Positions 3,590 to 34,051 of a DNA stretch of 64,000 nt are shown one piece after another. Position numbers and translations under genes: made by a program. Source of the stretch: Candidatus Adlerbacteria bacterium (lineage in GTDB: Bacteria; Patescibacteriota; Minisyncoccia; Phycocordibacterales; SBAW01). Below the pieces are notes generated by a model, which did no database searches, was not told the origin of the DNA, and saw nothing but the letters and a program-made list of their open reading frames with translations. Location of the stretch: the NCBI GenBank assembly GCA_963749085.1, contig CAVVLG010000003.1, positions 155,380 through 219,379 on the forward strand. The letters are read 5' to 3'. Positions within the stretch are counted from its first letter, which is position 1. Each line of letters opens with the position of its first letter.

Positions 3590-4726
3590 TTATTTTATGG
3601 CTTTGGCGACCGCCTGTGCCACTCCTATCTCAAAAGGTCCGGGGATTATCTTCTGCGCCGTGGGGTGTTTTACCAGCGCAGCTAAGTTTTTTGCCGCTTT
3701 TAATTTCATCTCATCGGTTATTTTTGAAACGCGATTGTCTAGCGCCCCGCGAAATACCCCGGGAAAGACAAGGGAGTTGTTTATTTGGTTTGGATAGTCG
3801 CTTCGTCCGGTGCCCACGACGAACGCTCCTCCCTTGTTCGCCTCCTCCGGCATGATTTCGGGAGTGGGATTTGCCATTGCGAACACTATCGCCTTTTTTG
3901 CCATGAGTTTGATGTCTCCCGCCACGGCGAGATGGGGGCCGGAGACTCCGATAAGCACATCGGAACCTTCCAGCGCTTCGCGTAAACTGCCGGAAACTTT
4001 CCTTGGATTTGTGCTTCTCGCCAATTCCTTTTTATGTTTCTCTTCTCTTCCTTCATGGATGATCCCCCTGCTGTCAAGCACGATAATATCTCTCACCCCT
4101 GCCTTCAGAAGCAACTTGGCGACCGCAGTGCCCGCCGCCCCTGCGCCGGATATGACCACTCGCAACTTTTTGAAATCTTTTTTGACCACCTTGGCCGCGT
4201 TGATGAGCGCTGCCAACACTGCAATGGCAGTGCCATGCTGATCATCGTGCATTACCGGGATGTCGAGTCGTGTTTTTATTCTGTCTTCGATGTCAAAACA
4301 TCCTGGTGCCTTGAAATCTTCGAGATTAATGCCGCCGAATGCGGGCGCGATGCGGCACACCGTTTCGACTATGTCATCGACGTTCTGCGTATCCAGCGTT
4401 ATTGGAAAGGCATCGACATTCGCAAAGGATTTAAACAGCGCGGCCTTCCCTTCCATGACTGGGAGCGCCCCGAAAGGCCCTATATTGCCGAGACCCAACA
4501 CTGCGGAGCCGTCGGAGATAACGGCTATCATTCTTCCCTTTATCGTATAGTCGCGAGCCTCTTTGGGATGTTTCGCGACGTAGGAGGAAACTGCTGCAAC
4601 GCCGGGGGTGTATATGAGGGAAAGTTCGTTCCTGTTTTTGACCAGCATCGCGGGGGCGATGCGAATTTTACCTTTGAGTTTTCTGTGGAGTGCGAGGGCT
4701 TTCTGTGAGATATCTTTTTTAGCCAT
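3590..4726 (-). CDS. NAD(P)-dependent malic enzyme (small type)
   Basis: LIYTPGVA..., HDDQHGTAIV, GAGAAGTAVAKLL Rossmann motif. Confidence 0.85.
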   Translation of the reverse strand: MAKKDISQKALALHRKLKGKIRIAPAMLVKNRNELSLIYTPGVAAVSSYVAKHPKEARDYTIKGRMIAVISDGSAVLGLGNIGPFGALPVMEGKAALFKSFANVDAFPITLDTQNVDDIVETVCRIAPAFGGINLEDFKAPGCFDIEDRIKTRLDIPVMHDDQHGTAIAVLAALINAAKVVKKDFKKLRVVISGAGAAGTAVAKLLLKAGVRDIIVLDSRGIIHEGREEKHKKELARSTNPRKVSGSLREALEGSDVLIGVSGPHLAVAGDIKLMAKKAIVFAMANPTPEIMPEEANKGGAFVVGTGRSDYPNQINNSLVFPGVFRGALDNRVSKITDEMKLKAAKNLAALVKHPTAQKIIPGPFEIGVAQAVAKAIK

Positions 4727-8262: not shown

Positions 8263-8263
8263 G

Positions 8264-8337
8264 TGGGCGCGGAGGGACTCGAACCCCCAACCCCGGATGT
8301 ATAAGATCCGTGCACTAACCAATTGTGCTACGCGCCC
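8264..8337 (-). tRNA. tRNA with anticodon UAU (predicted tRNA-Ile decoding AUA); CCA not encoded
   Basis: Reverse complement GGGCGCGTAGCACAATTGGTTAGTGCACGGATCTTATACATCCGGGGTTGGGGGTTCGAGTCCCTCCGCGCCCA folds as cloverleaf: 7-bp acceptor, U8, GG in D-loop, anticodon loop CUUAUAC, TTCGAGT T-loop. Confidence 0.7.
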
Positions 8338-8374
8338 AACATTACTGTACTTACAAAAAGACGCTTTGTAAATC

Positions 8375-9040
8375 TTATCCACTAGTTTTTGATTTCAAAA
8401 CCTCTATAGTCATCATTATTTTTTCGTATAAATCTCTGCTGTACACCCATATAGCACAGGTACCAAATCCAAATCGACCTTTATAATTTCTACGCTTATT
8501 GCTTTGCGACTTTTTAATATACGTATTACGAAAAGTAGAGACGGGAAGTTTAAGTTCACTCGCCCAAAATTTCAATTGTTTTTTGGTATTCATGTCAGAA
8601 TAAAGATGGAGACGGGCATGTAACTTATTCTTATCTACGCCAAACAACTTAAGCCATTTAATGAAAAATCTGAGCATTGCTGGGTCGGTATTGGCAAGTA
8701 GTACTGTACTGCGATCAACTTTCATTCCCTCTGCCCAATAGAGAAAGAAACCCACCAGAAGAAATTCCCGTTTTGAAATAGTACCAATCTTTTCAAGAGC
8801 TTCATTAAAGACTACTTGTCTGCGTATTACCTTCTTACGCCGAAATGATTCTCTAAATTTTTCAATCCGTTGAGCACTGTTATCACGCAATGCTCTGATT
8901 CTGTCCTCACTGAGCGGATAATTGACTAACCAATAATGAAGAGTACTTTTACTAATATTCAATTCTTCCTTTATCTGACTATAACTATAGCCCTTGAGCC
9001 GCAAAGTGATTGCTTTTTCTCTTTCTTTTACACGTGCCAT
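8375..9040 (-). CDS. Hypothetical HTH-domain protein (resolvase/transposase-type HTH at N-terminus), low-GC
   Basis: ITLRLKGYSYSQIKEELNISKSTLHYWL helix-turn-helix; about 33 percent GC versus about 50 percent for neighbours; adjacent to tRNA. Confidence 0.45.
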   Translation of the reverse strand: MARVKEREKAITLRLKGYSYSQIKEELNISKSTLHYWLVNYPLSEDRIRALRDNSAQRIEKFRESFRRKKVIRRQVVFNEALEKIGTISKREFLLVGFFLYWAEGMKVDRSTVLLANTDPAMLRFFIKWLKLFGVDKNKLHARLHLYSDMNTKKQLKFWASELKLPVSTFRNTYIKKSQSNKRRNYKGRFGFGTCAIWVYSRDLYEKIMMTIEVLKSKTSG

Positions 9041-9157
9041 AGTATAGATTGTATTATATCATGGTTCGAATTTTCTTTGATTAATCCGATCTATTCAAAA
9101 AACTGCTCCTGTGCTAGCATGCCGTGAGTTGAGATCTTCCAACAAACGAGGAAACCA

Positions 9158-10154: not shown

Positions 10155-10192
10155 ACCCGTCCCGGATTCATTTCGGGACGGGTTCTTTTTTT
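10155..10192 (+). terminator. Rho-independent terminator
   Basis: acccgtcccg...cgggacgggt hairpin plus T9. Confidence 0.7.
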
Positions 10193-12164
10193 AAAAATCT
10201 ACTTTAATAGAATCGGGAATTATATCCTCCTTCTTTTTCGGCGTGATGCCGTGGACTACAAGAATCTTTTCGAACTCCTCGCGCTCAAGTGTTTCAACTT
10301 CGACTAAACGGTGCGCGATGGCATCGAGCGTCTTGCGGTGCGTGGTGATGATGTCAGTTGCTTTTTTGTACGCTTCGTCGATGATACGTTTTACTTCGGT
10401 GTCGATTTCGCCGGATACTTTCTCAGAATATTCTTTGCCATTAACACCGGCGCCAAAAAGTGCATGGCCATTATCGCCTTCAAGCGCGACGGTTCCCATT
10501 TTATCGCTCATGCCCCACCGGGTCACCATGTTGCGCGCGAGGTTAGTTAAGACCTGCAGGTCGTTGGAGGGGCCTGTGGTTATGTCACCAAAAACCATTT
10601 TCTCGGCGACGTAACCCCCGAGGCTCATGGCAATGTCGTCCAGAAATTCCTTTTTGCTTTGCATACGTTTGTCTTCAAACGGAAGTTTCAGGGTATAACC
10701 CGCCGCACGACCGCGGGAGATGATAGAAATTTTGTGCACGGGGTCGGCATACGGCAGGAGCGAGGCCACGAGTGCATGTCCCGCTTCGTGGTAGGCGGTT
10801 ATTTCCTTTTCTTTTTTATTCAACACATGCGATTTCCGCTCGGGACCAAGCATCACCTTCTCAATCGAGCGGATAAGGTCGTATTGCGCGACGGTCTTAC
10901 GGTTTTCGCGCGCCGCCAAAATGGCGCCTTCGTTCATAAGCGAGAAGAGATCGGCGCCGGAGAAGCCGGGGGTGCGCTCCGCGACCACTTCGAGATTTAC
11001 GTCCTCGGCGAACGGTTTCTTGCGCGAGTGAATTTTCAAAATTTCAAGACGATCCTGCCGGTCGGGCAGCTCAATGACGACGCGGCGGTCGAAGCGGCCG
11101 GGACGAAGCAGCGCCGGATCAAGCACGTCGGGTCGGTTAGTTGCCGCCATGACGATAACCTTTTCATTCGGTTCGAATCCGTCCATCTCCACCAGAATTT
11201 GGTTGAGCGTCTGTTCGCGCTCGTCGTTGCCGCCGCCCACACCAGTTCCGCGTACGCGTCCCACTGCGTCTATCTCGTCGACGAAGATGATTGCCGGCGC
11301 GGCGCGTTTGGCGGTCAAGAAAAGATCCCTCACGCGGCTCGCACCAACACCGACAAACATTTCAACGAACTCCGAACCCGAGATGGAAAAAAACGGCACA
11401 CCCGCCTCCCCGGCTACTGCGCGTGCAAGAAGTGTCTTTCCCGTGCCCGGTGCGCCCATGAGCAAAATACCCTTGGGTATGCGCGCGCCGATATCGAGGA
11501 ATTTTTTTGGATTTTTCAGAAAATCTACTATTTCAAGCAACTCTTCTTTCGCTTCTTTGGCTCCTGCCACATCCTTGAAGGTCACGCGCGTACCCGCATC
11601 GTTAGGGTCAATGACGCGCGGTTTGCTTTGGCCGAAGGAGAACGCCTGCATGCCGGCGCCCCGCACTTGCCTCGAGAGATACCAGACGAAAAACGCGATT
11701 AAGAGAAGCGGCGCGGCGAAGGGCGCCAACAACTGGAGCCAGAACTCCCAGCCGCTCTGGCTGACGATATTTATCGTGACCTTGTTCATCTGCGTACTCG
11801 AAACACCGTAGTCATACAGCGTCTGGGTGAGCGGCGTGCCCGGTTCTTTTTGCGAGGTTTTCTCGGTCGAGGAGGCATTGTTGTAGATGACGTCAAGGTC
11901 GTCTCCGTTGACGTTTATGGTCGCCACCTTCCCCGCCTCGACGTCCTGCGCTACTTGCGAGATAGGTATTGCCTGCGGCTGGGGGCCGCCGCTGGTTGCA
12001 AAATAGGTGTAGGCACCCGCCAGAAGCAGGAGAAGGAGGACTGTAGTGGCCAGATTCACCCAGAAAGAATCTCCCTGCGGTAATTTGGGGAGCCCGGGCA
12101 TGTTACGGCGCGGTTTGGGGGGCTTTTTATCCCCCTGTGTTTGCTTATTCGGAGCGTCTGCCAT
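10191..12164 (-). CDS. ftsH: ATP-dependent zinc metalloprotease FtsH
   Basis: 2 TM, AAA Walker [24 protein letters not shown], second region of homology, HEAGHAL zinc motif; start set at MADAPNKQ to avoid overlap with smpB. Confidence 0.9.
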
Positions 12165-12223
12165 TGCGAAAACATCATAACACTTTCTATGTTTTTTGGC
12201 AAAAAAAATGGTAGAGTGGGCGC

Positions 12224-12667
12224 ATGAACCTGGTTGAACACAAAAAAGCACGGTTGGATTATGAAATCCTCGAAGAATTCGAGGCGGGTATCGAATTATT
12301 CGGTCATGAAGTCAAATCTCTGCGTACGCGACAGGGGAAACTCGAAGGTTCTCACGCCATCGTCAGGAACGGTGAGGCATACGTAGTGGGGATGCAAATT
12401 CCACCCTACCAGCCGGCAAACACGCCTGAAAGTTACGATCCGACACGCAGCCGCCGGTTGCTTTTGACCAAGAAGGAATTGGATGAATTAGAGGCGGCCG
12501 AAGGCAAGAAAGGCTTGACAATTGTTCCACTTTCGGTGTACAATAAGGGTTCGAAGTTAAAACTGCGCCTCGCCATAGCGCGCGGCCGTAAGAAGTATGA
12601 CAAGCGCGATGTCTTGAAGAAGCGCGACGCTGAACGTGAGATTGAAAGAACTTTGAAAAATCAGTAG
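12224..12667 (+). CDS. smpB: SsrA-binding protein SmpB
   Basis: Full-length SmpB similarity (GIEL.G.EVKSLR..., C-terminal basic tail). Confidence 0.9.
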   Translation: MNLVEHKKARLDYEILEEFEAGIELFGHEVKSLRTRQGKLEGSHAIVRNGEAYVVGMQIPPYQPANTPESYDPTRSRRLLLTKKELDELEAAEGKKGLTIVPLSVYNKGSKLKLRLAIARGRKKYDKRDVLKKRDAEREIERTLKNQ

Positions 12668-12705
12668 GCCGTCCCGAAGAGCGCACAATCGGTTGCGCGC
12701 TGTTC

Positions 12706-13071
12706 GGGAGTGCAAGGCCTAGACAATACATACGTCTCTCTGCACGCAAGAGGGCAGCGGGGTTCTGCTCTAAAAACTCCAAAGATAACTGGCAAGTCAG
12801 TTCAATCACCGTATGCGGTGAACGGTTTCGCTTTCGCTAACGCCTAAGCGACCGCGCTCGCTTCTCCTCTCCTGAAAGAGAAGGCCGAGTGTTATATCTC
12901 GGGATATAGTTTCGCAAACTGATTCTCTGCGAAATTGAAACTTGGAATCTGCGGCGTAATTCGATTTCGTCCGTTTCATACGAATTATGTCAAAGACCTC
13001 AAAGCGCACTAGCTCTTGTAGACCTGCTTATAGATCTGTATTGCACGAGGGTTCGAATCCCTCCACTTCCA
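12706..13071 (+). ncRNA. ssrA: tmRNA (ssrA), about 366 nt
   Basis: Directly downstream of smpB; 3' tRNA-like T-arm GAGGGTTCGAATCCCTC plus acceptor strand CACTTCC plus discriminator A pairing with 5' GGGAGTG; P2 helix caataca (12724-12730) with tgtattg (13038-13044); in-frame tag ORF ending TAA at 12845-12847, candidate tag GKSVQSPYAVNGFAFANA. Confidence 0.65.
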
Positions 13072-13200
13072 CAAATTCAAAAGCCCTTATTTTTCAAGGC
13101 TTTACAGAGCCAGATGACAGGTGGTTGGAACCGCCGTTTTTGAGGAAATTGTTAATTTAAGCCTTGGAATAAGGAGTTTTTGCGGTTCGAATTCAGTTAC
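13072..13200 (+). repeat. Structured repeat A1 (about 130 nt), first copy, immediately 3' of tmRNA
   Basis: About 85 percent identical to 13731-13858; nested long-range complementarity (cccttattt/aataaggg, caaggct/agcctt) and inner helix with compensatory change. Confidence 0.6.
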
Positions 13201-13242
13201 TTCTATCTCGAGTTTGAATCCATCTCAGCTTTTACGTTAAAA

Positions 13243-13271
13243 TTGACAGCGTAGTCTTTGTATGTTATCTT
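13243..13271 (+). promoter_or_regulatory. Sigma-70-like promoter (TTGACA-17-TATCTT)
   Basis: Consensus -35 with acceptable -10 at 3' end of repeat A1, upstream of ORF 13307. Confidence 0.45.
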
Positions 13272-13306
13272 ACTTGCAGTCTTAGTCCCAAGCAGGAGAA
13301 GTACAG

Positions 13307-13516
13307 ATGAATAATATCACGAGAATGGGTGTGGTCGCTTTGAGTTGGTTCTTGGTGTCCGTCTCTGCCACCTGGGCATTTACAACGCTCATCCCCGGCT
13401 GTCTGCTTGGATATTTCTGTCTAGGCAAGGAGGGAGGAAAGGAACTTACCAGAACAATCGTCCTTTCCCCACTTCTTTGGACAAGAAGGTTCGTTGTATT
13501 GTCGAATAGCAACTAG
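13307..13516 (+). CDS. Small hypothetical membrane protein (69 aa)
   Basis: AGGAGA RBS 8 nt upstream; one predicted TM helix; terminator downstream. Confidence 0.4.
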   Translation: MNNITRMGVVALSWFLVSVSATWAFTTLIPGCLLGYFCLGKEGGKELTRTIVLSPLLWTRRFVVLSNSN

Positions 13517-13548
13517 GGACAATCTTCAAACAACTTGGATCTGATACC

Positions 13549-13590
13549 CCGCGCCATCAGCAATGATAAGCGCGGGTTTTTCTTTTATTT
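13549..13590 (+). terminator. Rho-independent terminator
   Basis: cccgcgcc...gcgcggg stem plus tttttctttt. Confidence 0.6.
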
Positions 13591-13655
13591 GCTTGGCAAC
13601 TTTGCAATGTATAAATGTATATACGTATTACCAAATTGCCAAGGAGTTCTATTTT
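13588..13655 (+). repeat. Repeat B1 (about 65 nt) containing palindrome ATACGTAT flanked by inverted ttggcaa/ttgccaa
   Basis: Second copy at 15826-15885 (cgtatatacgtattaccaaRttgccaaggagtt shared). Confidence 0.5.
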
Positions 13656-13730
13656 GAACAAAATAGAATCACCACAATAGAATATTCACAGAAGCAGTGA
13701 CAAGTCCTAATTCGGACAAGACAGCTCCAC

Positions 13731-13858
13731 AAATCCAAAAGCCCTTATTTTTCAAGGCTCTACAGAGCCAGGTAACGGGTGGTTAGAACCGCTGTTTTTG
13801 AGGAAATCGTTACAATAAGCCTTTAAATAAGGGTTTCATGCGGTTCGACTCCTGTTTT
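13731..13858 (+). repeat. Structured repeat A2, second copy; preceded by a copy of the tmRNA 3'-terminal motif CTCCACAAAT
   Basis: See A1; upstream 13718-13737 gctccacaaatccaaaagccc mirrors tmRNA end ccacttccacaaattcaaaagccc. Confidence 0.6.
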
Positions 13859-13879
13859 CTCTCCTGGTTCAGATTCTAC

Positions 13880-13907
13880 TTGACAGAGGTGAATTTTAGT
13901 GTATAAT
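13880..13907 (+). promoter_or_regulatory. Near-consensus sigma-70 promoter TTGACA-N16-TATAAT
   Basis: Perfect -35 and -10 hexamers 16 nt apart at 3' end of repeat A2, 40 nt upstream of ORF 13950. Confidence 0.6.
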
Positions 13908-13949
13908 TAATATAGGTTCATCGACACCAAAGCACACAGGAGATCTGTC

Positions 13950-14363
13950 ATGGGGTACTACTTCCCGAAAGCAAGGTCTCTGAAAGACCTTGACCTGCAG
14001 CAGCAAGAGCGATACAAAATCCTTCGCTCGACAGGTAGAAATCAACAGCCAGCACTTCTCAGCCGGATCGAAACAGTTGAAAAGCATGCTGGTCCAATCA
14101 CCTCGGGTGAAATCTGGTCAGCTCTCGAAGAGCTTCTCCAAGATGTCTTCGTCACATGGATACTCGCGGGAGAAGATCCTGAGAAAGTCCAGTGGGTCGA
14201 TCCAGAGGATCTGACTGAACCGACACCTCCTCCGACCGAAGAAGAAAAGCTTAAAACACGGGAGTGGTTGGAAAGTTTATCTAAACGACCGGGGTATAGG
14301 ATACCACAACCGAAGGTAACTTTGTGGGGATTGCTCCGGTCATTCATTCACAGAAGTTCCTGA
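13950..14363 (+). CDS. Hypothetical acidic protein (137 aa)
   Basis: AGGAGA RBS; driven by consensus promoter; terminator at 14382-14416. Confidence 0.45.
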   Translation: MGYYFPKARSLKDLDLQQQERYKILRSTGRNQQPALLSRIETVEKHAGPITSGEIWSALEELLQDVFVTWILAGEDPEKVQWVDPEDLTEPTPPPTEEEKLKTREWLESLSKRPGYRIPQPKVTLWGLLRSFIHRSS

Positions 14364-14381
14364 GTCATTGCCGACATACTC

Positions 14382-14416
14382 GCCGCCTTTCGCAAGAGAG
14401 GCGGTTTCTATTTATT
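14382..14416 (+). terminator. Rho-independent terminator
   Basis: gccgcct...aggcggt hairpin plus T-run. Confidence 0.55.
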
Positions 14417-14538
14417 AGTACTTTCTTACCTTAAACAAGTTATAATTCGGACAAAACATCTCCGCCTGCTTGACGATGTTCGAACCGCTTTTGGTGTTAT
14501 GCTGTGAAGAGGTTATTTATTAGTTTCTATTTATTTTT

Positions 14539-14952
14539 ATGGCACTCACCTATTTTCTCGCTCAAGTGATAGGGCTGTATCTATTGATTGTAGGACTCAC
14601 CATGCTCTTTTGGAAAAAGCGCTGGATGAATGTCCTTCACGAGTTTTGCCAAAGCCAAGGTGAAACGCTTAGATATATGCTGGGGATAGTAGCTCTTCCT
14701 TTCGGACTTCTATTGGTCTTAGTACATAACTACTGGAACATGGGGGTGCTCGCATTGGTAGTGACGCTTTTCGGGTGGATAATCTTGCTTAAAAGCATTC
14801 TGGTGTTGTTTGTGTTTTCTCCAGAACAGATGGGCCGCTTAGTCAAAGTTTTTTGGATAGAGCAATGGTGGTATGTCTACGTTGTAATAATGTTAATCAT
14901 TGGCGCGTACTTGACGCATGCCGGGTTTACTCAAACTGGGCTGTTGCACTAG
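14539..14952 (+). CDS. Hypothetical integral membrane protein (4 TM)
   Basis: Highly hydrophobic 137-aa ORF; preceded by TATAAT-TTCGGACAAAACA motif. Confidence 0.4.
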   Translation: MALTYFLAQVIGLYLLIVGLTMLFWKKRWMNVLHEFCQSQGETLRYMLGIVALPFGLLLVLVHNYWNMGVLALVVTLFGWIILLKSILVLFVFSPEQMGRLVKVFWIEQWWYVYVVIMLIIGAYLTHAGFTQTGLLH

Positions 14953-15175
14953 CACACAATCAACTTCCAGCTCCACTCACAACTTTCTAATTCGAACTCT
15001 AAGCTATGCCTCAGTATTTGGGGATTTAGCGGTTTGAATCATTCCGATCGCCTCTCAAGTTCGGTTTGGTTAGAACACTTTTTACGAACGTCGGTTTGAT
15101 AACCTCGTATCGGACATCCAACTATGGGGTGGAAAGGTGATAGAATAAAAGGATTATAAATCTTTTAAAATATGT

Positions 15176-15643
15176 ATGAATAAACGAGTGACAATAGCTG
15201 CGAATATACTTCGCCTGCTCCTAGGGTGGTTTATGTTCGTCGACGGTCTGCAAATCCTGCTCACTCCAAATTGGAGCGCGAGCAGTTTCCTTCTTGGCGC
15301 AAAAACCTTCCCCGCTTTCTATGCATGGTTCGCTCTGCCGAGCAACGGATGGTGGGTCAATCCTCTGAATGCGTGGGGTATCACACTCGTCGGGGTCGCA
15401 CTACTTCTCGGAGTCGGGACCCGGCCTGCGGCGTGGGCTGGGGCGGCACTCATGATTCTCTATTACTTCCCGCACTATGCGTTCCCGATCGTGCCAAATG
15501 GGTTCATCGTTGAAGATCATATTATCTACGCTTCGGCATTTGTGCTCGTTGCCGTCTTTCCGGCCGCGCAATCCTTCGGTCTCGCCCGATACCTTCGCGA
15601 AACGTTCTTGGAGCGGATACCGGTCGTGAGTGCATTACTATAG
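15176..15643 (+). CDS. DoxX-family membrane protein
   Basis: LLRLLLGWFMF.DG..IL 4-TM DoxX-like profile. Confidence 0.5.
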   Translation: MNKRVTIAANILRLLLGWFMFVDGLQILLTPNWSASSFLLGAKTFPAFYAWFALPSNGWWVNPLNAWGITLVGVALLLGVGTRPAAWAGAALMILYYFPHYAFPIVPNGFIVEDHIIYASAFVLVAVFPAAQSFGLARYLRETFLERIPVVSALL

Positions 15644-15792
15644 GTACGGCCCGCAACACGTTTTCAGATGGAATCTTCCATTAAGGGTGGTCTCCACGAC
15701 CCATGGTCGTCCAAGCCCGAGAACATCGACGGCGGAACGACTCTCCTCGAAGGCGCCGGCTTAGGGTGACACTACCCAACGCCAGCACAAAG

Positions 15793-15820
15793 CCCCGCGC
15801 AAATGCGGGGTTATTTTTTA
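15793..15820 (+). terminator. Rho-independent terminator
   Basis: ccccgcgcaaatgcgggg plus ttatttttt. Confidence 0.7.
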
Positions 15821-15825
15821 CTCTT

Positions 15826-15885
15826 TTTACTTAGCAACTTAGCAACGTATATACGTATTACCAAGTTGCCAAGGAGTTATAATTT
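15826..15885 (+). repeat. Repeat B2 (copy of 13588-13655) followed by TATAAT-TTGGACAAGACAACTCC motif
   Basis: See B1. Confidence 0.5.
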
Positions 15886-15971
15886 GGACAAGACAACTCC
15901 ACATTGCTGAAAAATCCTCCTAGCTGGGAGGATTTTTCTATTTACGAAACCGTGCGATAACCTATTTCTAT

Positions 15972-16103
15972 CTATGGTGTCGTTGAAGTAGTGGCTGGGG
16001 CTGTGGTCGCACTTGAAGACGAGCTCGAGTACCACCACCACCACCCAAGACCAATGACGACAACTACGATGACCACAATCCACACAATGGTTGACGTTTT
16101 CAT
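15972..16103 (-). CDS. Candidate 43-aa single-TM peptide MKTSTIVWIVVIVVVVIGLGWWWWYSSSSSATTAPATTSTTP (below ORF-track size cutoff)
   Basis: Open frame with ATG; hydrophobic helix then WWWW and Ser/Thr-rich tail; weak RBS. Confidence 0.25.
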   Translation of the reverse strand: MKTSTIVWIVVIVVVVIGLGWWWWYSSSSSSATTAPATTSTTP

Positions 16104-16211
16104 ACTCTTAATAATTAACTGATACCATCGTAAGCATAGCATGGAATTTGTGCGGTAAAGCCATCCAAGCGGGAAAAACCCTTTAAACCCTGAGGGGTGT
16201 AGAATAAGGGG

Positions 16212-16421
16212 GTGCTTTTTTCCTTCCTATTCATATGGGGCTCAGTATTTTCGGTTATTGCGGGTGCGATAGCGTTCCTTATTTCCTACAAGGAAATGGT
16301 GCATCATTATGTGCAAAAAAAAGAGCCGCTCAAACAAGCCTCACAGACCGGCATCCTCACCTTCCTATTTTTCATGGCGATAACGATCGCACTGGCATTC
16401 GGCTTGCCTTCCCTGTTCTAA
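16212..16421 (+). CDS. Small 2-TM membrane protein
   Basis: Hydrophobic 69-aa ORF directly upstream of VIT-family gene. Confidence 0.35.
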   Translation: MLFSFLFIWGSVFSVIAGAIAFLISYKEMVHHYVQKKEPLKQASQTGILTFLFFMAITIALAFGLPSLF

Positions 16422-16439
16422 TTCCAATCAATACTTATC

Positions 16440-16928
16440 ATGAAAGAAGTGTACATACGAAATATCATCTTCGGCATCGCCGACAGTTTAGTGTCGACCG
16501 TGGGGCTTCTCGCAGGCATTGACGTTGCGGGTAGCACCCATTCCACCATTATTTTGACCGGTATAGTGTACGCATTTGTCGAATCTCTTTCGATGGCGAT
16601 GGGGAGCTTTCTTTCCGAAGAAGCGACCGAGGAGTTCGAAACTAAAAACGAACACACTTCGACGGCACCGACTGTTGCCGGAGTCGTCATGTTTCTATCA
16701 TTTCTTCTTGCATCGTTCATTCCCCTCTTTCCGTACGTGATTACTGCGTCCTTCTTTGCATTATGGATCTCCATAGGACTTTCGCTTTTCACGCTCTTCA
16801 TAGTTGGTATCGTGATGGCAAAACTTTCAAACATTAAGCTCCTGCGACACGCGGTCAAAATGGTGCTGCTGGGCGGCGCGGCAATACTCGTCGGCGTCAT
16901 CGTCGGCAGATACATCCACATCCAGTAG
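16440..16928 (+). CDS. VIT1/CCC1-family (vacuolar iron transporter-like) membrane protein
   Basis: GIADSLVSTVGLLAG motif and 5-TM profile. Confidence 0.55.
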   Translation: MKEVYIRNIIFGIADSLVSTVGLLAGIDVAGSTHSTIILTGIVYAFVESLSMAMGSFLSEEATEEFETKNEHTSTAPTVAGVVMFLSFLLASFIPLFPYVITASFFALWISIGLSLFTLFIVGIVMAKLSNIKLLRHAVKMVLLGGAAILVGVIVGRYIHIQ

Positions 16929-16930
16929 TG

Positions 16931-18064
16931 TTACTGATACTGGATGAATGACGGCTGCGGAGTGAGCTTGAGTATTTGCGCCGGGGTCAGCATGCCGGAA
17001 CTCGGCGGCAACAGATCGTTTTTATAGAATAGTTTAAAACCCGTAAACTGCACCGGCTCGCCGGCTATAAAGTCGTCATAGGTGGTTATTTTTTTAGCCG
17101 GCGCCCCCCAGCCATCCATATCCATGACTATCTCAACCTGCGGCAGCGGTCGAATCTCTTGATAATTGGTCACCATGTCCTGCGTAAAACGATGCACGAC
17201 CAAGATCTTGGGCGGCAGGTTGTTCTCCGTAACCAGGGTCGCTAAGAAATTAGCAGCAAAATTGATATCGCTTGCATCAAGACTGCCGATAGCGGTATCG
17301 GGACGCTCCCCATTGTGCATCGCGAATTCCGGATCAAGAGAAAGCTCCACCTGGGGGAGACTCAGGTAAGGTGCGAGAAGCGGAACTTCAGTCTCCACAG
17401 TGCTCAACCCCACCTGCACGTCGAGAAACACCAGGCCGTGCACCTGCGCGGCCATGCTGATAGCCTGCTCTATTTGGCTCGCTGGCATCCGCAGTCGATA
17501 CTTCCCGTCGGAACCGGGACTCCCCTGTGCAGTTACAGCAATGTAGTCTATCGCAGGGATAACCGGCGTCGTCGGATCGGCGGCTTGCCACTCGGCGCTC
17601 GTACTTGCAAGCATCTGCAGCACCTGCGAAGGTGGATATTCTCCGAGCACCCCCATCTGAGTTGAGTAAAAATTACCGTAGTAGGCCACGATGCGGTAAA
17701 ACGGCAGTACCGCTCCTGCTTCGGGATAGACAGTCTTGACCGGCCACAGCGAGGTGCTCGTGGCTTCAACGACAGTAGTCGAAGAGATAGTCATCGTTGA
17801 AGAACCGGCTAGGGGAACCTGCACAACTACGGTACGGACGGGCTCGTTGGCGATGGCGATAAGTTTTTGATCATACGCCGCTATGTCGAGCATGGGTGCG
17901 GGATCGGTTTTCGATGGATTGGTGTCCGTAACAATTGCATACTCCACTGAAAAAAGACCTGAGGAGTCGACAAAATATGCAAGTGCCGCGCATGCCGCGC
18001 ACAACACGACACCTCCGGTTATGAGCGAGAGGAGATCTTTGTATTTTTTTAAAAAATGACGCAT
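16931..18064 (-). CDS. Hypothetical membrane-anchored extracytoplasmic protein (377 aa)
   Basis: N-terminal TM; no family assigned. Confidence 0.5.
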   Translation of the reverse strand: MRHFLKKYKDLLSLITGGVVLCAACAALAYFVDSSGLFSVEYAIVTDTNPSKTDPAPMLDIAAYDQKLIAIANEPVRTVVVQVPLAGSSTMTISSTTVVEATSTSLWPVKTVYPEAGAVLPFYRIVAYYGNFYSTQMGVLGEYPPSQVLQMLASTSAEWQAADPTTPVIPAIDYIAVTAQGSPGSDGKYRLRMPASQIEQAISMAAQVHGLVFLDVQVGLSTVETEVPLLAPYLSLPQVELSLDPEFAMHNGERPDTAIGSLDASDINFAANFLATLVTENNLPPKILVVHRFTQDMVTNYQEIRPLPQVEIVMDMDGWGAPAKKITTYDDFIAGEPVQFTGFKLFYKNDLLPPSSGMLTPAQILKLTPQPSFIQYQ

Positions 18065-18233
18065 GTATCTGCGATAGTAGCATTAATAGGGCAAACGCGA
18101 AGCGAAGAAGGGAGCATTTCTAAACAGTAAATACGTATTCGAGGGGCAATTCCCACCCCTTGACTGCAGGGAAGAGAGAGCCATTATACTAAGGTCACGG
18201 TCCATTATCGATTAATTAATAGCATATTTTTAT

Positions 18234-18788
18234 ATGTCAAAGCTTAAATGGGATTGGATAATTCTAGTGGCAGTCGTCGTCATCATTATTATCGCGTTTT
18301 GGTGGAGTGGCATCTTCGGCACGAGTGCCCCAGCGCAGCAATCGGCTGCCACGGTCAATAGCGTCAATTCGCTCCTCACTGAAGCCATCGCCGCTATCGA
18401 TGCTCAGATAGCCATCATCAACATCGAAGTACCGGCGCTTAGTACTACTTCTTCGAAAACACAGATAGGCACGGTTGCTGGGAACTTCCAGACAGTCGCC
18501 AACCTTATCAGGACGCTCTCGATTACCTTAGGGGCAGACATTAGCAACGCGCACAATGCGGGCACTTCGAGTGCTTCTACCGCTGCGGCCCAGGCGGCAC
18601 TGCAGGATCTCAGCCGTCAACTCTCGAACATGACTTCGCAGGCAAATGCGGCGGATGAGAACGTCATGGCCACCTCTTCGACAACTGCAACGCTTCAGCA
18701 TTCAATCACACAGTTCAAAGTGGCGCAGACTGATCTCAAAGCAGCTCGTGCTGACATCACTACCATCGTGCAAAAACTCGATATCTAG
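18234..18788 (+). CDS. Hypothetical N-terminally anchored low-complexity (Ala/Thr/Ser/Gln) helical protein
   Basis: Promoter-like TTGACT-N19-TATACT upstream; strong terminator downstream. Confidence 0.45.
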   Translation: MSKLKWDWIILVAVVVIIIIAFWWSGIFGTSAPAQQSAATVNSVNSLLTEAIAAIDAQIAIINIEVPALSTTSSKTQIGTVAGNFQTVANLIRTLSITLGADISNAHNAGTSSASTAAAQAALQDLSRQLSNMTSQANAADENVMATSSTTATLQHSITQFKVAQTDLKAARADITTIVQKLDI

Positions 18789-25426: not shown

Positions 25427-26698
25427 TTAATACTCCCGTATAGAAATCTGCGCGTCAACGCGGCGCGAGAGATCCAAAATAACTGAAACGACGATGAGAA
25501 GCGCTGTGCCACCCAAGGTGAGCGACTGGATGCCGGTTACCGACTGCATGATTATTGGCAAGACCGCGATGATACCAAGAAAAAGTGCACCCACGAGTGT
25601 GATGCGGGTTATCACCTTGGCCAAATAATCCGAGGTCGAACCACCGGGACGCACGCCGGGAATAAAGGCGCCGTTCTTTTGGAGATTTTCGGAGATGCTG
25701 TGCGGATCGAAAGTCACCGCCGTATAGAAATAGGTGAAGAGGACGACGAGCACGAAGTAGAGCAAACCATAGATGCCGAGGTTCTGAAACCAGCTCAAAA
25801 TAGCGCCCGATATCGCGGCGAGGATATGGTTGCTTGAGGTCTGAAAGAACGTGGCAAACATCTGCGGTATAAGGAGAAACGACAACGCAAAGATAATCGG
25901 AATGACACCTGCCTGATTGAGTCGAAGCGGCAGATACGTCGAGGAGCCGCCGAAGAATTTCATCCCACGCACGCGCTTGGCATACGTCACTGGCACCGGA
26001 CGCTCAGCCTCCGAGATAATCACTACCGCAGCAACCACTGCGAATGCGGCGGCGATGAAACCTACATAAATCGGTATCTGGCTCGGCTCAAAGGAAAAGA
26101 GAAGCTGGGAAACGTTATTTGGCAGGCGTGCGACGATGCCCGCGAAAATGATGACGGATACTCCATTGCCAAGTCCGAACTCGGAAATAAGCTCGCCGAG
26201 CCACATGAGAAATATCGAGCCCGCGGTCACCACCACAATATTCACGCCGAGCTGAAAAGGCGTGAGCGACGTGATAATACCTTCGCGCTCAAGAATAAGT
26301 ATGAAACTGATACTCTGCACAATGGCGATTGGAAGCGCCAAGAGACGGGAGTACTGACTGAACTGCTTGCGACCGAGTTCCCCCTCTTCTTGATACAGGG
26401 CTTTCAGCCTCGGAACCATAATGGTCAGAAGCTGCATGACGATGGAGGCAGTAATGTAGGGTCCTACGCCGAGGAGCACTATCGAGAGGTTGGAGAGCCC
26501 GCCACCGGAGAAAAGATTGAGGAGTCCGAAGAATTGATTATTATTGAAAAACAGCTGCAGCTGTGTCGCGTTGATGCCCGGTATCGGAATTGACGCCAAC
26601 ACGCGGAAGACCGCAAGTACGCCGAGCACGAAGAGAAGACGGTTGCGCAATGAAGCGTCCGAAATGAGGAGCGTGAATTTTTGAATAAAGGTATTCAT
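25427..26698 (-). CDS. secY: Preprotein translocase SecY
   Basis: 10-TM SecY profile. Confidence 0.9.
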   Translation of the reverse strand: MNTFIQKFTLLISDASLRNRLLFVLGVLAVFRVLASIPIPGINATQLQLFFNNNQFFGLLNLFSGGGLSNLSIVLLGVGPYITASIVMQLLTIMVPRLKALYQEEGELGRKQFSQYSRLLALPIAIVQSISFILILEREGIITSLTPFQLGVNIVVVTAGSIFLMWLGELISEFGLGNGVSVIIFAGIVARLPNNVSQLLFSFEPSQIPIYVGFIAAAFAVVAAVVIISEAERPVPVTYAKRVRGMKFFGGSSTYLPLRLNQAGVIPIIFALSFLLIPQMFATFFQTSSNHILAAISGAILSWFQNLGIYGLLYFVLVVLFTYFYTAVTFDPHSISENLQKNGAFIPGVRPGGSTSDYLAKVITRITLVGALFLGIIAVLPIIMQSVTGIQSLTLGGTALLIVVSVILDLSRRVDAQISIREY

Positions 26699-28621: not shown

Positions 28622-29017
28622 TTACCAAATCTCAAACAACGCTTCGCCGCCGACGCGTTTTTCATGTGCTTCTTTGCCGGAAATAACTCCGCTCGGGGTT
28701 GAGAGCACGAGAAGTCCATGGCCGCGTTTGACCGGTTTGATGTCGTGAACGCCCATATACATGCGGCGCGAGGGTTTTGAAATTCTTTTCACACCCGAGA
28801 TCGCCGGGCGACCATTTTTATAAGAAAGTATTATTGAAAGCGAATTTCCGCCAAGCGGATTCTTAACCGTTTTCAATTCGCTGACATAGCCTTCTTTGGC
28901 GAGAATTTCCGCGATGGCAAGCTTCATGCGCGAGTAGGGCGCCGACACGCGGGACTTGCCCGCCATGGAAGCGTTCTGTAAACGGATAAGCAAATCTGCT
29001 ATTGGGTCGGTTACCAT
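28622..29017 (-). CDS. rpsH: 30S ribosomal protein S8
   Basis: [16 protein letters not shown]. Confidence 0.85.
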
Positions 29018-29196
29018 GATGATTTTCGGATGCCCGGTATAAGCCCCTCGTTGGCAGCTTCTCTGAAGCAGGCGCGGCACATGCCAAAATCGCGCATGAA
29101 GGCGCGTTTGCGCCCGCAGCGGAAACAGCGTCGAACCACCCGGGATTTAAATTTGGGTGGGCGGTTTGACCTTGCAACTGTTGATTTTTTTGCCAT
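29011..29196 (-). CDS. rpsZ: 30S ribosomal protein S14, Zn-ribbon type Z (61 aa)
   Basis: [23 protein letters not shown]. Confidence 0.85.
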
Positions 29197-29236
29197 GTAT
29201 ATGATTCTGTTGGTTTCCCCCGTTTGGGGGACCTTG

Positions 29237-29263
29237 CAGAAAAAAGGAGCCCCGACTGGGCTC
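29237..29263 (-). terminator. Rho-independent terminator closing the island's minus-strand transcript
   Basis: Minus-strand gagcccagtcggggctc followed by cttttttct; lies between island and rpsZ start. Confidence 0.65.
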
Positions 29264-29328
29264 ACAAGATACTACGCGAATTGGATTTAGAAGTCAAATT
29301 ACCTTATAGATTGCAGCGTAGAAGAAGG

Positions 29329-30042
29329 TCAAAATGGTATTTGAGCTTGTACACGATACGACAATATATTCGTGACTGGCACGCACGTACCCATCAGTCT
29401 GGTGCACAATATCCTTTTTCCGACGTATCCATGCAGGTTAAAGATAAAGGCATTGGCGATGCTTTCGGCAACGATGAGTGCAAAAATCGTTGCGGCTGGC
29501 AGAAGCCATTCGTCAGCATAAACAGCATCACGCGCCAGACGGTTGTCGGCTCTGAATTTTTTCAGGCCGCGCAGACGCCTACGCTCGACGAGCCGGCTCG
29601 CCTCCAGCGTCGCGCCGTGAGCAAGCTTTGCCTCTGCAACCGAGGCACGTGCGTCGGCAACCGCGAGTGTCACGTCGAGCTGGCGCGGCATGCGCGCCCG
29701 GATTTTCTCGTCGGCGTCGTGGAGCTGACTTGCGAGAAACTGCTTAAGTAAGTTGGCGCCCGACTGGATTTCAGCCACGATTTGCCGCTGCGGATCGTTC
29801 AGATCGGCATCGTCTTTGTGCGGACGGTTCTCGACGCCATCGTCTCGCGCCCGCTCGACCAAGCGCAATGACCTGGCCAAGCGCTCAAAGGCGGGACGGA
29901 GGTGGTCATTGACCTCCGGTAGCCAGCGAGTACGCGTCCATGTCGGAGATTTGGAGAAGGTATTCATCGAGCCGCGGAAGTTCATGGCAGTCACCTTAAT
30001 TATTGGTTTGAGCGTGGCCAGTTGTCGCCTGGCTGAAGACAT
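29329..30042 (-). CDS. Hypothetical charged helical protein with C-terminal TM (tail-anchored); contains direct repeat DR1 in its 3' end
   Basis: 237-aa ORF in GC-rich segment; overlapping plus-strand ORF 29224-29751 judged spurious; coding status uncertain. Confidence 0.35.
   Translation of the reverse strand: MSSARRQLATLKPIIKVTAMNFRGSMNTFSKSPTWTRTRWLPEVNDHLRPAFERLARSLRLVERARDDGVENRPHKDDADLNDPQRQIVAEIQSGANLLKQFLASQLHDADEKIRARMPRQLDVTLAVADARASVAEAKLAHGATLEASRLVERRRLRGLKKFRADNRLARDAVYADEWLLPAATIFALIVAESIANAFIFNLHGYVGKRILCTRLMGTCVPVTNILSYRVQAQIPF
29400..29437. repeat. 38-bp perfect direct repeat DR1 (tggtgcacaatatcctttttccgacgtatccatgcagg)
   Basis: Identical copy at 33679-33716; partial copy ggtgcacaata..tccgacg at 33579-33601. 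Confidence 0.9.
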
Positions 30043-30187
30043 CCATGCTTTCGCTGGGTGGTGAGCACAAACTCTTCGCTAAGAAGGTGTCTAAGCGGGA
30101 TCTGTTTTTTGAACAAAGGCATTGCCGGTGCACTAAATGTGAAGAACGGCGTTTCAGGGTTCGAACGCTTCTCGACTACTTGCGCTG

Positions 30188-31249: not shown

Positions 31250-31297
31250 ATCGCAGTATTTTGCCTTATAATTCATGCTTTTTCATGCTCCCTTGAC

Positions 31298-31332
31298 AAT
31301 TGTACTGTATTTGATAGTATATCCAAAGTTGT
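31298..31332 (+). promoter_or_regulatory. Promoter (TTGACA-16-TAGTAT) overlapped by repeated TTGTACT(G/T)TA / GTAC palindromic operator-like sites
   Basis: cccttgacaattgtactgtatttgatagtatatccaaagttgtactttacagcagtac upstream of ORF 31375. Confidence 0.45.
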
Positions 31333-31374
31333 ACTTTACAGCAGTACTTCGTCAAATCTCCAGTCCGATCCTCG

Positions 31375-31671
31375 GTGCCTGACAAATCGGGCATCGACAA
31401 CTCGGAATGGAGGTTGCTAATGGCACATTCACAATGTTGCAGCGCAAACTCGCCTGACGCGTCACGCGCTGATATCGAAGACGAAGCTTGTCGTCGGCTG
31501 ATGATTTCGCTCTACGGCAGTGAAGCCGAGGCGAGGCTTGTCGCTGAGGCCCTCTTACGGGACATAACGCCCGAAGAGGAGGAACTGATCGAGCGGCGGT
31601 ACAATGCCGGCGACCAAATCGCTGACCAAATTGTGCGCGAGCTTGGTTTCCCTCCCGAACCGGAAAGATAA
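31375..31671 (+). CDS. Small HTH protein, sigma-70 region-4-like (98 aa)
   Basis: ITPEEEELIERRYNAGDQIADQIVREL resembles region 4.2 HTH; C-terminal 55 aa duplicated at N-terminus of ORF 32704. Confidence 0.5.
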   Translation: MPDKSGIDNSEWRLLMAHSQCCSANSPDASRADIEDEACRRLMISLYGSEAEARLVAEALLRDITPEEEELIERRYNAGDQIADQIVRELGFPPEPER

Positions 31672-31715
31672 GGTGAGGGTGGCCGAGCGAGCAATTGGTA
31701 AGCGACTTCGACTTA

Positions 31716-31745
31716 AGACCCCGTAAATGCGGGGTCTTTTTGTAT
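31716..31745 (+). terminator. Rho-independent terminator
   Basis: aagaccccgtaaatgcggggtcttttt. Confidence 0.75.
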
Positions 31746-34045: not shown

Positions 34046-34051
34046 AGTGTG

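Follow-up and report, generated by a model that had tools for sequence, protein, structure and literature searches.

The window, a 64-kb stretch of DNA from a Candidatus Adlerbacteria bacterium, carries on its plus strand a listed ORF for smpB (12224..12667), the conserved left flank of the region described here, followed by the tmRNA gene, ssrA (12706..13072/74; ARAGORN, and Rfam RF00023 at 75.5 bits). The SmpB protein is 80% identical to SmpB of Adlerbacteria/Paceibacterota, and L081 has an identical smpB gene, there recorded with the Pfam SmpB family. Two independent Logan contigs match the window at 100% identity over 11208-12730 and 12701-18363, which excludes an assembly artefact as the source of the arrangement.

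An insert follows the tmRNA gene. Its left boundary lies at the last tmRNA bases, ..CACTTCCAC followed by AAAT. The right boundary is marked by a tmRNA-end-like core, CTCCAC, with a strong palindromic terminator (15895..15938; GAAAAATCCTCCTAG/CTGGGAGGATTTTTC, inverted repeat I4, 93% complementary, -18.6 kcal/mol), and beyond it stand the conserved right-flank genes ORF56 (15972-16142, minus strand) and o69b (16212-16421, plus strand). In relative L003 the order is the same, TCTCCACA with a terminator and then an o69b homologue (71% identity), and L091 has an ORF56-like sequence, read directly, at 2581-2700. Because the core and terminator stand ahead of flank genes common to the closest relatives, the stretch 13073-15900 is recognized as a 2.8-kb insert, and 15895..15938 was probably the flank that originally followed the tmRNA gene, now displaced. 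The insert has the low GC noted in the sequence-only reading (0.457, against 0.512 for the window, within the lowest 1.3% of 2.8-kb windows). It also lacks an integrase, as that reading held: no recombinase occurs in the region, nor among the 30 larger window ORFs tested.

Two 131-nt repeats and the genes behind them

Two plus-strand repeats, R1 (13068..13198) and R2 (13726..13856), found by repeat comparison and blastn, form the left-end modules of units E1 and E2. They are 131 nt long and 84-85% identical without gaps, in agreement with the approximately 130-nt repeats first noticed, and the 64-kb window holds no further copy. R1 starts at the common TCCACAAAT. A copy of the tmRNA terminal motif had been claimed ahead of the second repeat; since the tmRNA 3' terminus reads CTTCCACAAAT and not CTCCACAAAT, the stretch in common there is only the 9 nt of TCCACAAAT.

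Both repeats contain a terminator-like hairpin (13120-13135 in R1, 13778-13793 in R2) followed by GTTTTTGAGG. At 13162-13181 R1 has a second small hairpin with a T-run, and its end is a degenerate copy of the tmRNA segment from T-loop to 3' end (13184-13203; repeat family D5, 75%). The 3'-part hairpin and its counterparts, in L003 and at 15004-15045, show covariation (CCTT/AAGG, CCTCA/TGAGG, CCTCA/TGGGG). In their hairpins and T-runs, and in this covariation, the repeats resemble intrinsic (Rho-independent) terminators. They differ from them in that the local hairpins, at -3 to -9 kcal/mol, are weak beside the clear terminators of the neighbourhood (-15 to -19), and in that three hairpins within a conserved 131-nt unit go beyond what a simple terminator needs.

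Each repeat is followed by a promoter near the consensus, as had been described. The promoter-like site of E1 (13243..13271, plus strand) has TTGACA, a 17-nt spacer and a TG-extended TATCTT, for 10/12 matches, while the consensus promoter of E2 (13880..13907, plus strand) has TTGACA, a 16-nt spacer and TATAAT, for 12/12. The small ORF reported behind each repeat is there too, with 69 and 137 aa respectively, but the first is a doubtful gene. ORF69 (13307..13516, plus strand) is an orphan hydrophobic ORF that may not be a gene, with no protein family, no homologue and no gene call in the public assembly; a terminator hairpin of -17.4 kcal/mol follows it at 13548-13575. ORF137a (13950..14363, plus strand), the cargo of E2, is a member of a small protein family of unknown function whose genes stand singly in other CPR genomes. 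Its L016 homologue lies directly 3' of the L016 tmRNA gene; homologues elsewhere lie in unrelated contexts and have none of the unit ends seen here. Terminator prediction and hairpin energy place a terminator behind ORF137a at 14382-14405.

The remainder, E3 (14467..15900, plus strand), is delimited by its ORFs, R remnants, terminator and repeats, and may be two units. It carries ORF137b, a membrane protein (14539-14952, plus strand, a listed ORF), ORF155, a DoxX protein (15176-15643, plus strand, E=1.3e-8), and a terminator at 15791-15812 (from the same two kinds of evidence). Two putative remnants of the long repeat, both statistically weak, follow two further copies of the D3 motif described below: one of its centre at 14476-14492 (E = 3.2) and one of its 3' part at 15004-15045 (nhmmer E=0.21), with hairpin, T-run and GCGGTTTGAAT. 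At least two units, E1 and E2, have a promoter of their own, and most units have a terminator.

Right-end repeats and unit boundaries

The right ends have repeats of their own. The 63-nt family B, noted earlier, consists of D2a in E1 (13599..13661, plus strand) and D2b in E3 (15829-15891), 84% identical; D2a is an imperfect palindrome, CTTGGCAA..TTGCCAAG, around the palindrome ATACGTAT that had drawn attention to the family. With blastn the homology of D2a to the E3 right end extends to 13572-13661. The motif seen three times in the sequence-only reading lies at 13708, 14443 and 15880, and TAATTYGRAC has a fourth copy at 14988. The four copies are all on the plus strand between 13.7 and 15.9 kb, against 0.57 expected by chance in the whole window. 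The motif lies within D3, which closes E1 (D3a with core, 13700..13731, plus strand, ACAAGTCCTAATTCGGACAAGACAGCTCCAC followed by AAA, the last bases mimicking the tmRNA 3' end), E2 (D3b with a degenerate core, 14435..14466, plus strand, ..ACATCTCCGC) and E3 (D3c, 15872-15900, plus strand, from repeat comparison); the fourth motif copy, TAATTCGAAC, precedes the 3'-part remnant at 15004-15045.

Core-like CWNCTCCRC occurs in four copies in the region, all on the plus strand. The repeated core is short (6-9 nt), and D3 bears a weak resemblance, about 57% by eye, to the tmRNA segment from T-loop to end, so the classical, clean displaced tmRNA 3' fragment is missing. Similarity between units found by blastn is confined to their ends: for E1 and E2, 140 nt at the left (R1 against R2, 83.6%) and a right-end stretch of 29 nt (86%); for E1 and E3, 90 nt (76.7%) and a right-end stretch of 29 nt; for E2 and E3, a right-end stretch of 26 nt.

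The tmRNA end in related genomes

The order ftsH-smpB-tmRNA is kept in about 35 relatives, and in every relative examined the tmRNA 3' end is the exact point at which synteny is lost, with different content downstream. This bears out the proposal of an accessory, horizontally variable region with att-like repeats at a tmRNA hotspot. The closest relatives, L003 and L091, have different inserts of about 0.9 kb ahead of the same flank genes: 0.86 kb in L003, between the tmRNA gene and its core and terminator, and a third insert of about 0.95 kb ahead of the ORF56-like gene in L091.

Large serine recombinase genes adjoin the tmRNA gene in L002, L007 and L031, with a homologue partly at the same position in L039. 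Those of L007 and L031 are minus-strand ORFs that run into the tmRNA 3' end and have the domains Resolvase, Recombinase and Zn_ribbon_recom. L016 has similar small tandem units after its tmRNA gene, with boundaries CTCCAC/AAAG and GTCCAC/AAAC and a 46-nt repeat at the 3' ends, and L011 has a 63-nt repeat, 87% identical, ahead of two unrelated ORFs. No copy of R, D2 or D3 was found in any other genome or metagenome, a third R was absent from two metagenome and three viral scans, and no excised or empty-site variant was found among other genomes and metagenomes.

Origin of the region

On balance, 13073-15900 probably consists of three or four very small cassettes without an integrase, integrated in tandem at the tmRNA 3' end, and is best read as decayed or trans-mobilised mini-islands. 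Since the units are alike at their ends only, R1 and R2 would be element arms and not copies of an RNA gene; most likely they are the matching left ends of two stacked small cassettes. Units of about 0.5-0.9 kb, with one gene each, would have piled up between the single tmRNA gene and its original terminator. The left end of a unit would be R or what remains of it, R beginning at the tmRNA-end core TCCACAAAT and containing weak terminator-like hairpins and T-runs, with an outward-facing cargo promoter after it. The right end would comprise the terminator of the cargo, in some units the palindromic D2, and D3 ending in the tmRNA-like CTCCAC core. R1 and R2 would then be homologous element-side arms beside the recombination core, on the P' side of an attP-like junction D2-D3-core-R, brought in as two related elements inserted successively. 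As a likely secondary role, R1 would keep transcription of the highly expressed tmRNA gene from running on into the cargo. The presumed mobility of the cassettes would depend on a recombinase acting in trans or since lost, for which the best candidate would be a tmRNA-specific large serine recombinase as in the relatives.

A possible, if rather unlikely, alternative is local duplication or rearrangement of the intergenic control region behind tmRNA, without site-specific recombination or a mobile element: unequal or illegitimate recombination would have copied R (terminator and promoter) and D2/D3, and the intervening genes would have been replaced or decayed. L011 offers a parallel, as its 63-nt repeat is a promoter and 5' UTR module doubled before the two ORFs, the second copy without a preceding CCAC core. 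The lack of a recombinase in the region and the ORFs tested, the shortness of the core identity and the resemblance, by eye, of D3 to an interior stretch of R (GGA..TTxTAATTT), which fits a common repeat origin, all point the same way. A tandem duplication should, however, keep interiors similar, and here ends that are 84-88% identical enclose interiors that cannot be aligned; four times, always on one strand, a boundary falls at a tmRNA-end-like core, the base composition of the region is foreign, and serine recombinase islands use the same site in relatives. It is very improbable that R is a miniature inverted-repeat transposable element. Inverted repeats of about 22 nt, AAAAGCCCTTATTTTTCAAGGCT and AGCCTTGGAATAAGGAGTTTTT, do bound a unit of about 103 bp, which in copy 1 folds into a long hairpin (-36.7 kcal/mol), but just two copies occur in 64 kb, both directly after the TCCACAAAT core, and 93 related loci, the metagenomes and the viral contigs have none; a target-site duplication is not to be seen, and the similarity of R1 and R2 runs past the inverted repeats on both sides.

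The sequence-only reading took R for a structured RNA with nested helices under selection, which could derive from the tmRNA transcript as an sRNA or 3' trailer, or else regulate the downstream ORF in cis. We consider this improbable, and identification of the repeats as a new structured RNA is not supported. The nested helices do exist, as 28 pairs with 92.9% of cells paired, against 25-57% with partners slid, a control that is biased because the structure came from the same two sequences. The plus strand folds better than shuffled sequence (z-scores -2.74 for R1, -2.34 for R2), unlike the minus strand of copy 2 (z = -0.65). Broken pairs are fewer than under random mutation (P = 0.017 starting from copy 1, 0.16 from copy 2), and there are two wobble-preserving changes. 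The compensatory change offered as the sign of conserved structure, however, is a single pair (columns 47/78, A-U to G-C), which in simulation with two sequences arises by chance with P = 0.23-0.25 and is reached in 271/500 shuffles, while four pairs are broken in one copy, among them an A.A at 42/83 within the inner helix that holds the compensatory pair. Paired columns (44%) hold 9 of the 20 differences, showing no depletion of substitutions. RNAalifold prefers another consensus with no compensatory pair. The minimum-free-energy folds of R1 and R2 differ from each other, and both are better by 6-15 kcal/mol than the structure proposed. The proposed Rfam search gave no match for the repeats, and a covariance model run over 1.28 Mb of relatives recovered only R1 and R2, the next match (29 bits, in L029) being an AT-rich stretch away from the tmRNA end; metagenomes and viral contigs gave no matches. 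The predicted promoters lie downstream of R, so that the 5' leaders of the ORFs do not include it. A simpler cause accounts for the long-range complementarity: R holds two similar small palindromes, AGCC(C)TT..AAGGCT and AGCCTT..AAGG, that necessarily cross-pair.

As a probable tandem array of small cassettes, the region invites comparison with several known systems. Integron cassettes are mostly promoterless and anchored on attI, with R''/R' cores RYYYAAC/GTTRRRY. Integron arrays, including integrase-less attC clusters, share with this one the single-gene units in one orientation, the absence of a nearby integrase and imperfectly palindromic non-coding spacers of about 60-140 nt. They differ in that R lacks the RYYYAAC/GTTRRRY cores, E1 and E2 have promoters, most units have terminators, and the anchor is a tmRNA gene, with no IntI found. 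Islander islands are defined by an integrase gene and a displaced target-gene fragment (Hudson et al. 2015, PMC4383910). The tmRNA 3' end is likewise targeted here and a target-like fragment displaced to the far end, but recombinase and a good displaced fragment are both missing, and insertion is at or after the last tmRNA bases, so the tmRNA gene is not split.

The array is most likely a known kind of insertion hotspot in miniature and without an integrase, as seen in the Dehalococcoides ssrA islands (ssrA-GIs) described by McMurdie et al. 2011 (PMC3146451), which also occur in tandem, in some cases lack the integration module, and have a conserved motif immediately before the repeat. Those islands are much larger than units of 0.5-0.9 kb with one small gene and have a six-gene integration module, where this array has neither module nor recombinase; their clean 20 bp contrasts with a repeated core of 6-9 nt here, a 131-nt non-coding module takes the place of a recombinase gene as the conserved left end, and the host is a CPR bacterium. 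In common are the tandem stack directly 3' of a single tmRNA gene, boundaries marked by the ssrA 3' end or its repeat, a short motif upstream of the repeat that does not align with ssrA (here D3), the missing integration module of some islands, and low GC with disrupted synteny. The recombinases of L007, L031 and L002, of about 510-580 aa, on the reverse strand and with the ORF running into ssrA, match the DsiB layout.

Boundaries of the insert behind the tmRNA gene

The source of the window is an uncultured, Adlerbacteria-like member of Paceibacterota (CPR), whose SmpB is at most 80% identical to that of any species representative; the best other match among 5.8 billion proteins is 88% identical and lies on contigs of about 1 kb. 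Exact look-ups for closer relatives return identical contigs only. Because two independent Logan contigs match the window at 100% identity, over 11208-12730 and 12701-18363, the arrangement is no assembly artefact. (The Logan assembly of ERR12036785 has two contigs that overlap by only 30 nt, window 12701-12730, at the 5' edge of the tmRNA gene, which hints at an assembly-graph branch, possibly strain variation, just upstream of the locus.)

The genes ftsH (10191-12251, minus strand), smpB (12224-12667, plus strand) and tmRNA (12706-13072/74, plus strand) precede the insert. All relatives keep ftsH-smpB-tmRNA, and synteny ends exactly at the tmRNA 3' end; many of them have a strong terminator directly 3' of the tmRNA gene. 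In the window, a perfect palindromic terminator (15909-15938, -18.6 kcal/mol) stands 2.8 kb downstream, just after the CTCCAC that ends D3c, the last copy of a short boundary motif. It is followed by two small ORFs, ORF56 (15972-16142, minus strand) and the 69-aa o69b (16212-16421, plus strand), and then by a VIT1-family gene (16440-16928). In L003, one of the two closest relatives, the tmRNA gene is followed by a different 0.86-kb insert with one ORF, by TCTCCACA plus a terminator, and then by an o69b homologue (71% identical); in L091, the other, a third insert of about 0.95 kb precedes an ORF56-like gene. These two relatives confirm that the 15909-15938 terminator with ORF56 and o69b represents the original tmRNA flank, which makes 13073-15900 an insert specific to this lineage that now separates the tmRNA gene from the terminator it once had.

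The sequence-only reading had called this stretch an accessory region rather than conserved core, and the different inserts that L003 and L091 carry before shared flank genes bear it out. Its low GC content is likewise real (0.457 against 0.512 for the window, placing it in the lowest 1.3% of 2.8-kb windows), as is the absence of an integrase from the region. A tblastn search of 12900-16300 shows no recombinase remnant, the cargo ORFs have no match to any recombinase family, no recombinase was found among the 30 larger ORFs of the window, and the ORFs tested include no tyrosine recombinase.

Repeats and units of the insert

The repeats described in the sequence-only reading are present. The long repeat, R, is 131 nt long, with copies R1 at 13068-13198 and R2 at 13726-13856 that are 85% identical (blastn aligns 140 nt at 83.6%) and no further copy anywhere in the 64-kb window. 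The second repeat family, D2, occurs at 13599-13661 and 15829-15891, and the short motif D3, which runs into a core resembling the tmRNA end, at 13708, 14443 and 15880 (D3a, D3b and D3c). A fourth match to the first ten bases of D3, TAATTYGRAC, lies at 14988; each of these copies is on the plus strand, and 0.57 chance matches would be expected in the whole window. The cores are enriched and strand-specific, and they are short, 6-9 nt: the bases shared with the tmRNA end at the boundaries are only TCCACAAAT (9 nt, D3a), CTCCAC (D3c) and CTCCGC (D3b). The first of these is what the R copies have in common with the tmRNA end; the form given for it in the sequence-only reading, CTCCACAAAT, is one base off because the tmRNA gene ends in CTTCCACAAAT. 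No stretch within the insert matches the tmRNA end at 16 or more of 22 nt, and the sole downstream match at that level, at 16023, lies in the unrelated low-complexity region of ORF56.

The cores delimit three units, E1 (13073-13731), E2 (13732-14466) and E3 (14467-15900). Compared with blastn, these are similar at their ends only; the interiors are unalignable and the ORFs unrelated. E1 and E2 have in common 140 nt on the left (R) and 29 nt on the right (D3), E1 and E3 a 90-nt right-end module (terminator flank plus D2) together with D3, and E2 and E3 just D3. The ORF69 of E1 is an orphan, with no homologue and not called as a gene. ORF137a of E2 has ten homologues, solitary genes in various CPR contexts; one of them lies directly after a tmRNA gene, in L016 only, and those outside L016 have no R, D3 or core at their ends. 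E3 encodes a membrane protein (ORF137b) and a DoxX protein (ORF155).

Promoter-like sites do lie downstream of both R copies, with 10/12 matches for R1 and 12/12 for R2. R1 also contains a terminator-like hairpin, GGTGGTTGGAACCGCC and then GTTTTTGAGG, for which a terminator scan finds a counterpart in R2, so that each copy has a stem-loop followed by a T-run; the two stems are weak, at -8.7 and -6.4 kcal/mol, and R hairpins overall range from -3 to -9 kcal/mol. The 3' end of R is a degenerate copy of the tmRNA sequence from the T-loop to the 3' end (the pseudo tmRNA end, D5). That R might duplicate the whole terminal 130 nt of tmRNA was rejected, the resemblance being limited to these final 20 nt. 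Behind D3b (14476-14492) and behind the fourth copy of the motif (15004-45, with hairpin, T-run and GCGGTTTGAAT) there are weak R remnants. The L003 insert opens with the same hairpin/T-run/GCGGTTC module as the latter remnant, and the stem of this module covaries across copies: CCTT/AAGG, CCTCA/TGAGG, CCTCA/TGGGG.

R as a candidate structured RNA

A compensatory change in an inner helix had been offered in the sequence-only reading as an argument that R forms a conserved RNA structure. The nested helices it proposed are present (28 pairs, 92.9% of cells paired), and on the plus strand R1 and R2 each form a more stable fold than shuffled sequence does (z = -2.74 and -2.34). The argument from covariation does not hold. 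Exactly one pair, at columns 47/78, is compensatory, whereas four are disrupted in one of the copies, among them an A.A at 42/83 in that same inner helix. When the 20 differences are scattered at random, 23-25% of trials contain one or more compensatory pairs, or P about 0.24 by chance. Column shuffles reach the observed covariation in 271 of 500 cases, and significance is in any case out of reach with two sequences. Paired columns make up 44% of the alignment and hold nine of the 20 differences, so the helices are not protected from change. The RNAalifold consensus differs from the proposed structure and has 31 pairs, 0 of them compensatory. Minimum-free-energy folds differ between R1 and R2, the proposed structure being 6-15 kcal/mol worse than either. 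The long-range complementarity itself exists because two similar small palindromes, AGCC(C)TT..AAGGCT near the start and AGCCTT..AAGG near the end of R, necessarily cross-pair.

Searches for further members find none. Rfam has no match to R, either at the gathering threshold or with the limit relaxed to E = 10, and nhmmer finds no homologue over 93 related loci. A covariance model built on the proposed structure, run against 1.28 Mb of relatives, recovers only the two R copies (165 and 164 bits); the next match, at 29 bits in L029, is treated as chance, as it lies in an AT-rich stretch away from the tmRNA end. Neither R nor D3 turns up in metagenomes (0 for a 28-nt block of R, 0 for D3 plus core), in exact-pattern scans of viral contigs (0 for a 30-mer of R, 0 for D3) or in the 93 loci, and blastn of the whole insert yields 0 matches in phage and plasmid collections. 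The 20-mer AGCCCTTATTTTTCAAGGCT of R does occur exactly in three IMG/VR contigs, L082 (3013-3032), L083 (7743-7762) and L084 (3221-3240). The contexts are unrelated, one inside a terminator and one beside iterons, and the matches are taken as chance; the 20-mer is commoner in viral contigs than expected for its length, probably a compositional coincidence.

It would appear, then, decidedly unlikely that R is a genuine structured RNA. A single covarying pair between two diverged copies of a repeat is no evidence for RNA structure, and the boundary modules of stacked islands can resemble structured RNA genes.

The tmRNA site in relatives and the origin of the insert

Two relatives carry large serine recombinases (Resolvase + Recombinase + Zn_ribbon_recom) at the same site, L007 at 10936-12480 and L031 at 10673-12406, both on the minus strand and both with reading frames that extend into the tmRNA 3' end in antisense. 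From the T-stem on, the tmRNA 3' end of L031 has the same sequence as that of the window. Homologues are found at this position in L002 (10830-12362, minus strand, frame again into the tmRNA antisense) and partly in L039. The right ends of the L007, L031 and L002 islands were not found within 9.5 kb. Their layout is that of DsiB in the Dehalococcoides ssrA islands, which are tandem and lie downstream of ssrA, bounded by ssrA 3'-end repeats that are preceded by a conserved motif not aligning with ssrA (PMC3146451). Some of those islands are without an integration module, and these are presumed either to be fixed or to be mobilised in cis (PMC3146451). The FLKN codons of the L007 and L031 recombinases have GTTTTTGAGGAA as their reverse complement, and R was therefore considered as a decayed 3' end of such a recombinase gene. 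This reading was rejected: low-stringency tblastn returns only words of 4-5 residues, their order is reversed relative to a GFETA-like motif, and the only real match is to the antisense of tmRNA itself.

Other relatives have small arrays. L016 (10875-12090) has two tandem promoter-ORF-terminator units after tmRNA, whose boundaries read CTCCAC|AAAG and GTCCAC|AAAC and whose 3' ends carry a 46-nt repeat. In L011 (878-1800), a 64-nt insert after tmRNA ends in a pseudo acceptor end (..GCGACACCAC) and is followed by two unrelated ORFs, each behind a copy of one 63-nt promoter-plus-leader module (87% identical). Among repeats of the tmRNA-end 7-mer in relatives, an L025 match at +5251, which extends across core genes, is probably due to chance, and an L030 match is uncertain. 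Integration at tmRNA genes is already known, as are tandem, partly integrase-less ssrA islands (PMC3146451; PMC4383910). Against known ssrA islands, the insert is unusual in its very small single-gene units, its 131-nt conserved non-coding end and its CPR host; it has the synteny break at tmRNA and the distinct composition of an ssrA island, but no recombinase within.

From the observed anatomy and comparative pattern, we lean modestly toward related small elements having been inserted successively at the last bases of the tmRNA gene. The joined ends of such an element would read D2-D3-core-R, and each newcomer would be placed between the tmRNA gene and the previous element, giving the order tmRNA-core-R1...D3a-core-R2...D3b-core...D3c-core-terminator, with R1 and R2 as homologous element-side arms beside the core. 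The hairpins and T-runs of R may stop read-through from tmRNA, while the outward-facing promoter would serve the cargo. We infer that insertion was site-specific, that a recombinase was involved, and that R serves as an insulator. No empty site, excised circle or copy of the element elsewhere was found, the only other assemblies of the locus being identical to the window. A rather less probable course of events is that a control module between genes was duplicated locally and no mobile element took part, of which L011 looks like a case. MITEs should show many dispersed copies with terminal inverted repeats and target-site duplications; with two adjacent copies and no target-site duplication seen, it is hardly credible that R is one.

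A broader form of the successive-insertion reading is speculative and on the whole unlikely: the tmRNA 3' end of Adlerbacteria-like CPR might be a platform that captures miniature single-gene cassettes, each self-transcribed, with a tmRNA-specific large serine recombinase moving them in trans. Such a system would resemble an integron, but with a serine recombinase and an anchor on tmRNA; D2-D3-core-R would form the cassette ends, and the L016 and L011 arrays and the single inserts of L003 and L091 would be further examples. True integrons have IntI and attC sites with R''/R' core sites (RYYYAAC/GTTRRRY), and their cassettes are mostly promoterless, whereas E1 and E2 carry their own promoters; by inspection, GTTAATT and GTTACAA misfit GTTRRRY. 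If the narrower reading, that of small cassettes inserted one by one, is right, it would illustrate how bacteria whose genomes are extremely reduced can still acquire and shed small accessory genes, by exchange at a single safe position next to an essential RNA gene and in units far below the usual island size. The cargo would be mostly membrane proteins and proteins of unknown function.

Several other features were observed at tmRNA genes and in the window. A non-coding insert of 170-200 nt follows the tmRNA terminator in five Paceibacterota genomes (L005 11669-11850, L010 10874-11070, L012 4261-4460, L022 8389-8590, L033 11338-11540). It includes the tmRNA 3' end in inverted orientation and a conserved core, GCGAGCCGGGGTCGCGAAAA...TTATTYGTGAC, is adjoined on its 3' side by a direct duplicate of the tmRNA sequence from the T-loop to the 3' end, and matches no Rfam family at the gathering threshold. 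In L012, a LOOT RNA (RF03000, 71.3 bits) lies at 4556-4674, about 300 nt downstream of the tmRNA gene. In the window itself, 8263-9150 has a GC content of 0.36 (window mean 0.51), adjoins tRNA-Ile(TAT) (8263-8337, minus strand) and holds a 221-aa ORF (8375-9040, minus strand) in which an HTH_23 domain is recognised; this stretch, too, may be a small insert, here at a tRNA gene. Within 29000-35700, a Cas1 gene (34052-35380, minus strand; PF01867, E=1.4e-66, the domain beginning at residue 109) is situated inside the spc ribosomal-protein operon, with rplE (35154-35690), rplN and rplP just upstream of it and secY (25427-26698) downstream. The stretch at 28-39 kb of the window yielded no CRISPR array. 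Beside the gene are a 103-aa ORF and three plus-strand ORFs without Pfam matches (30188-33570), and the region looks like a solo-Cas1 island splitting the ribosomal operon.
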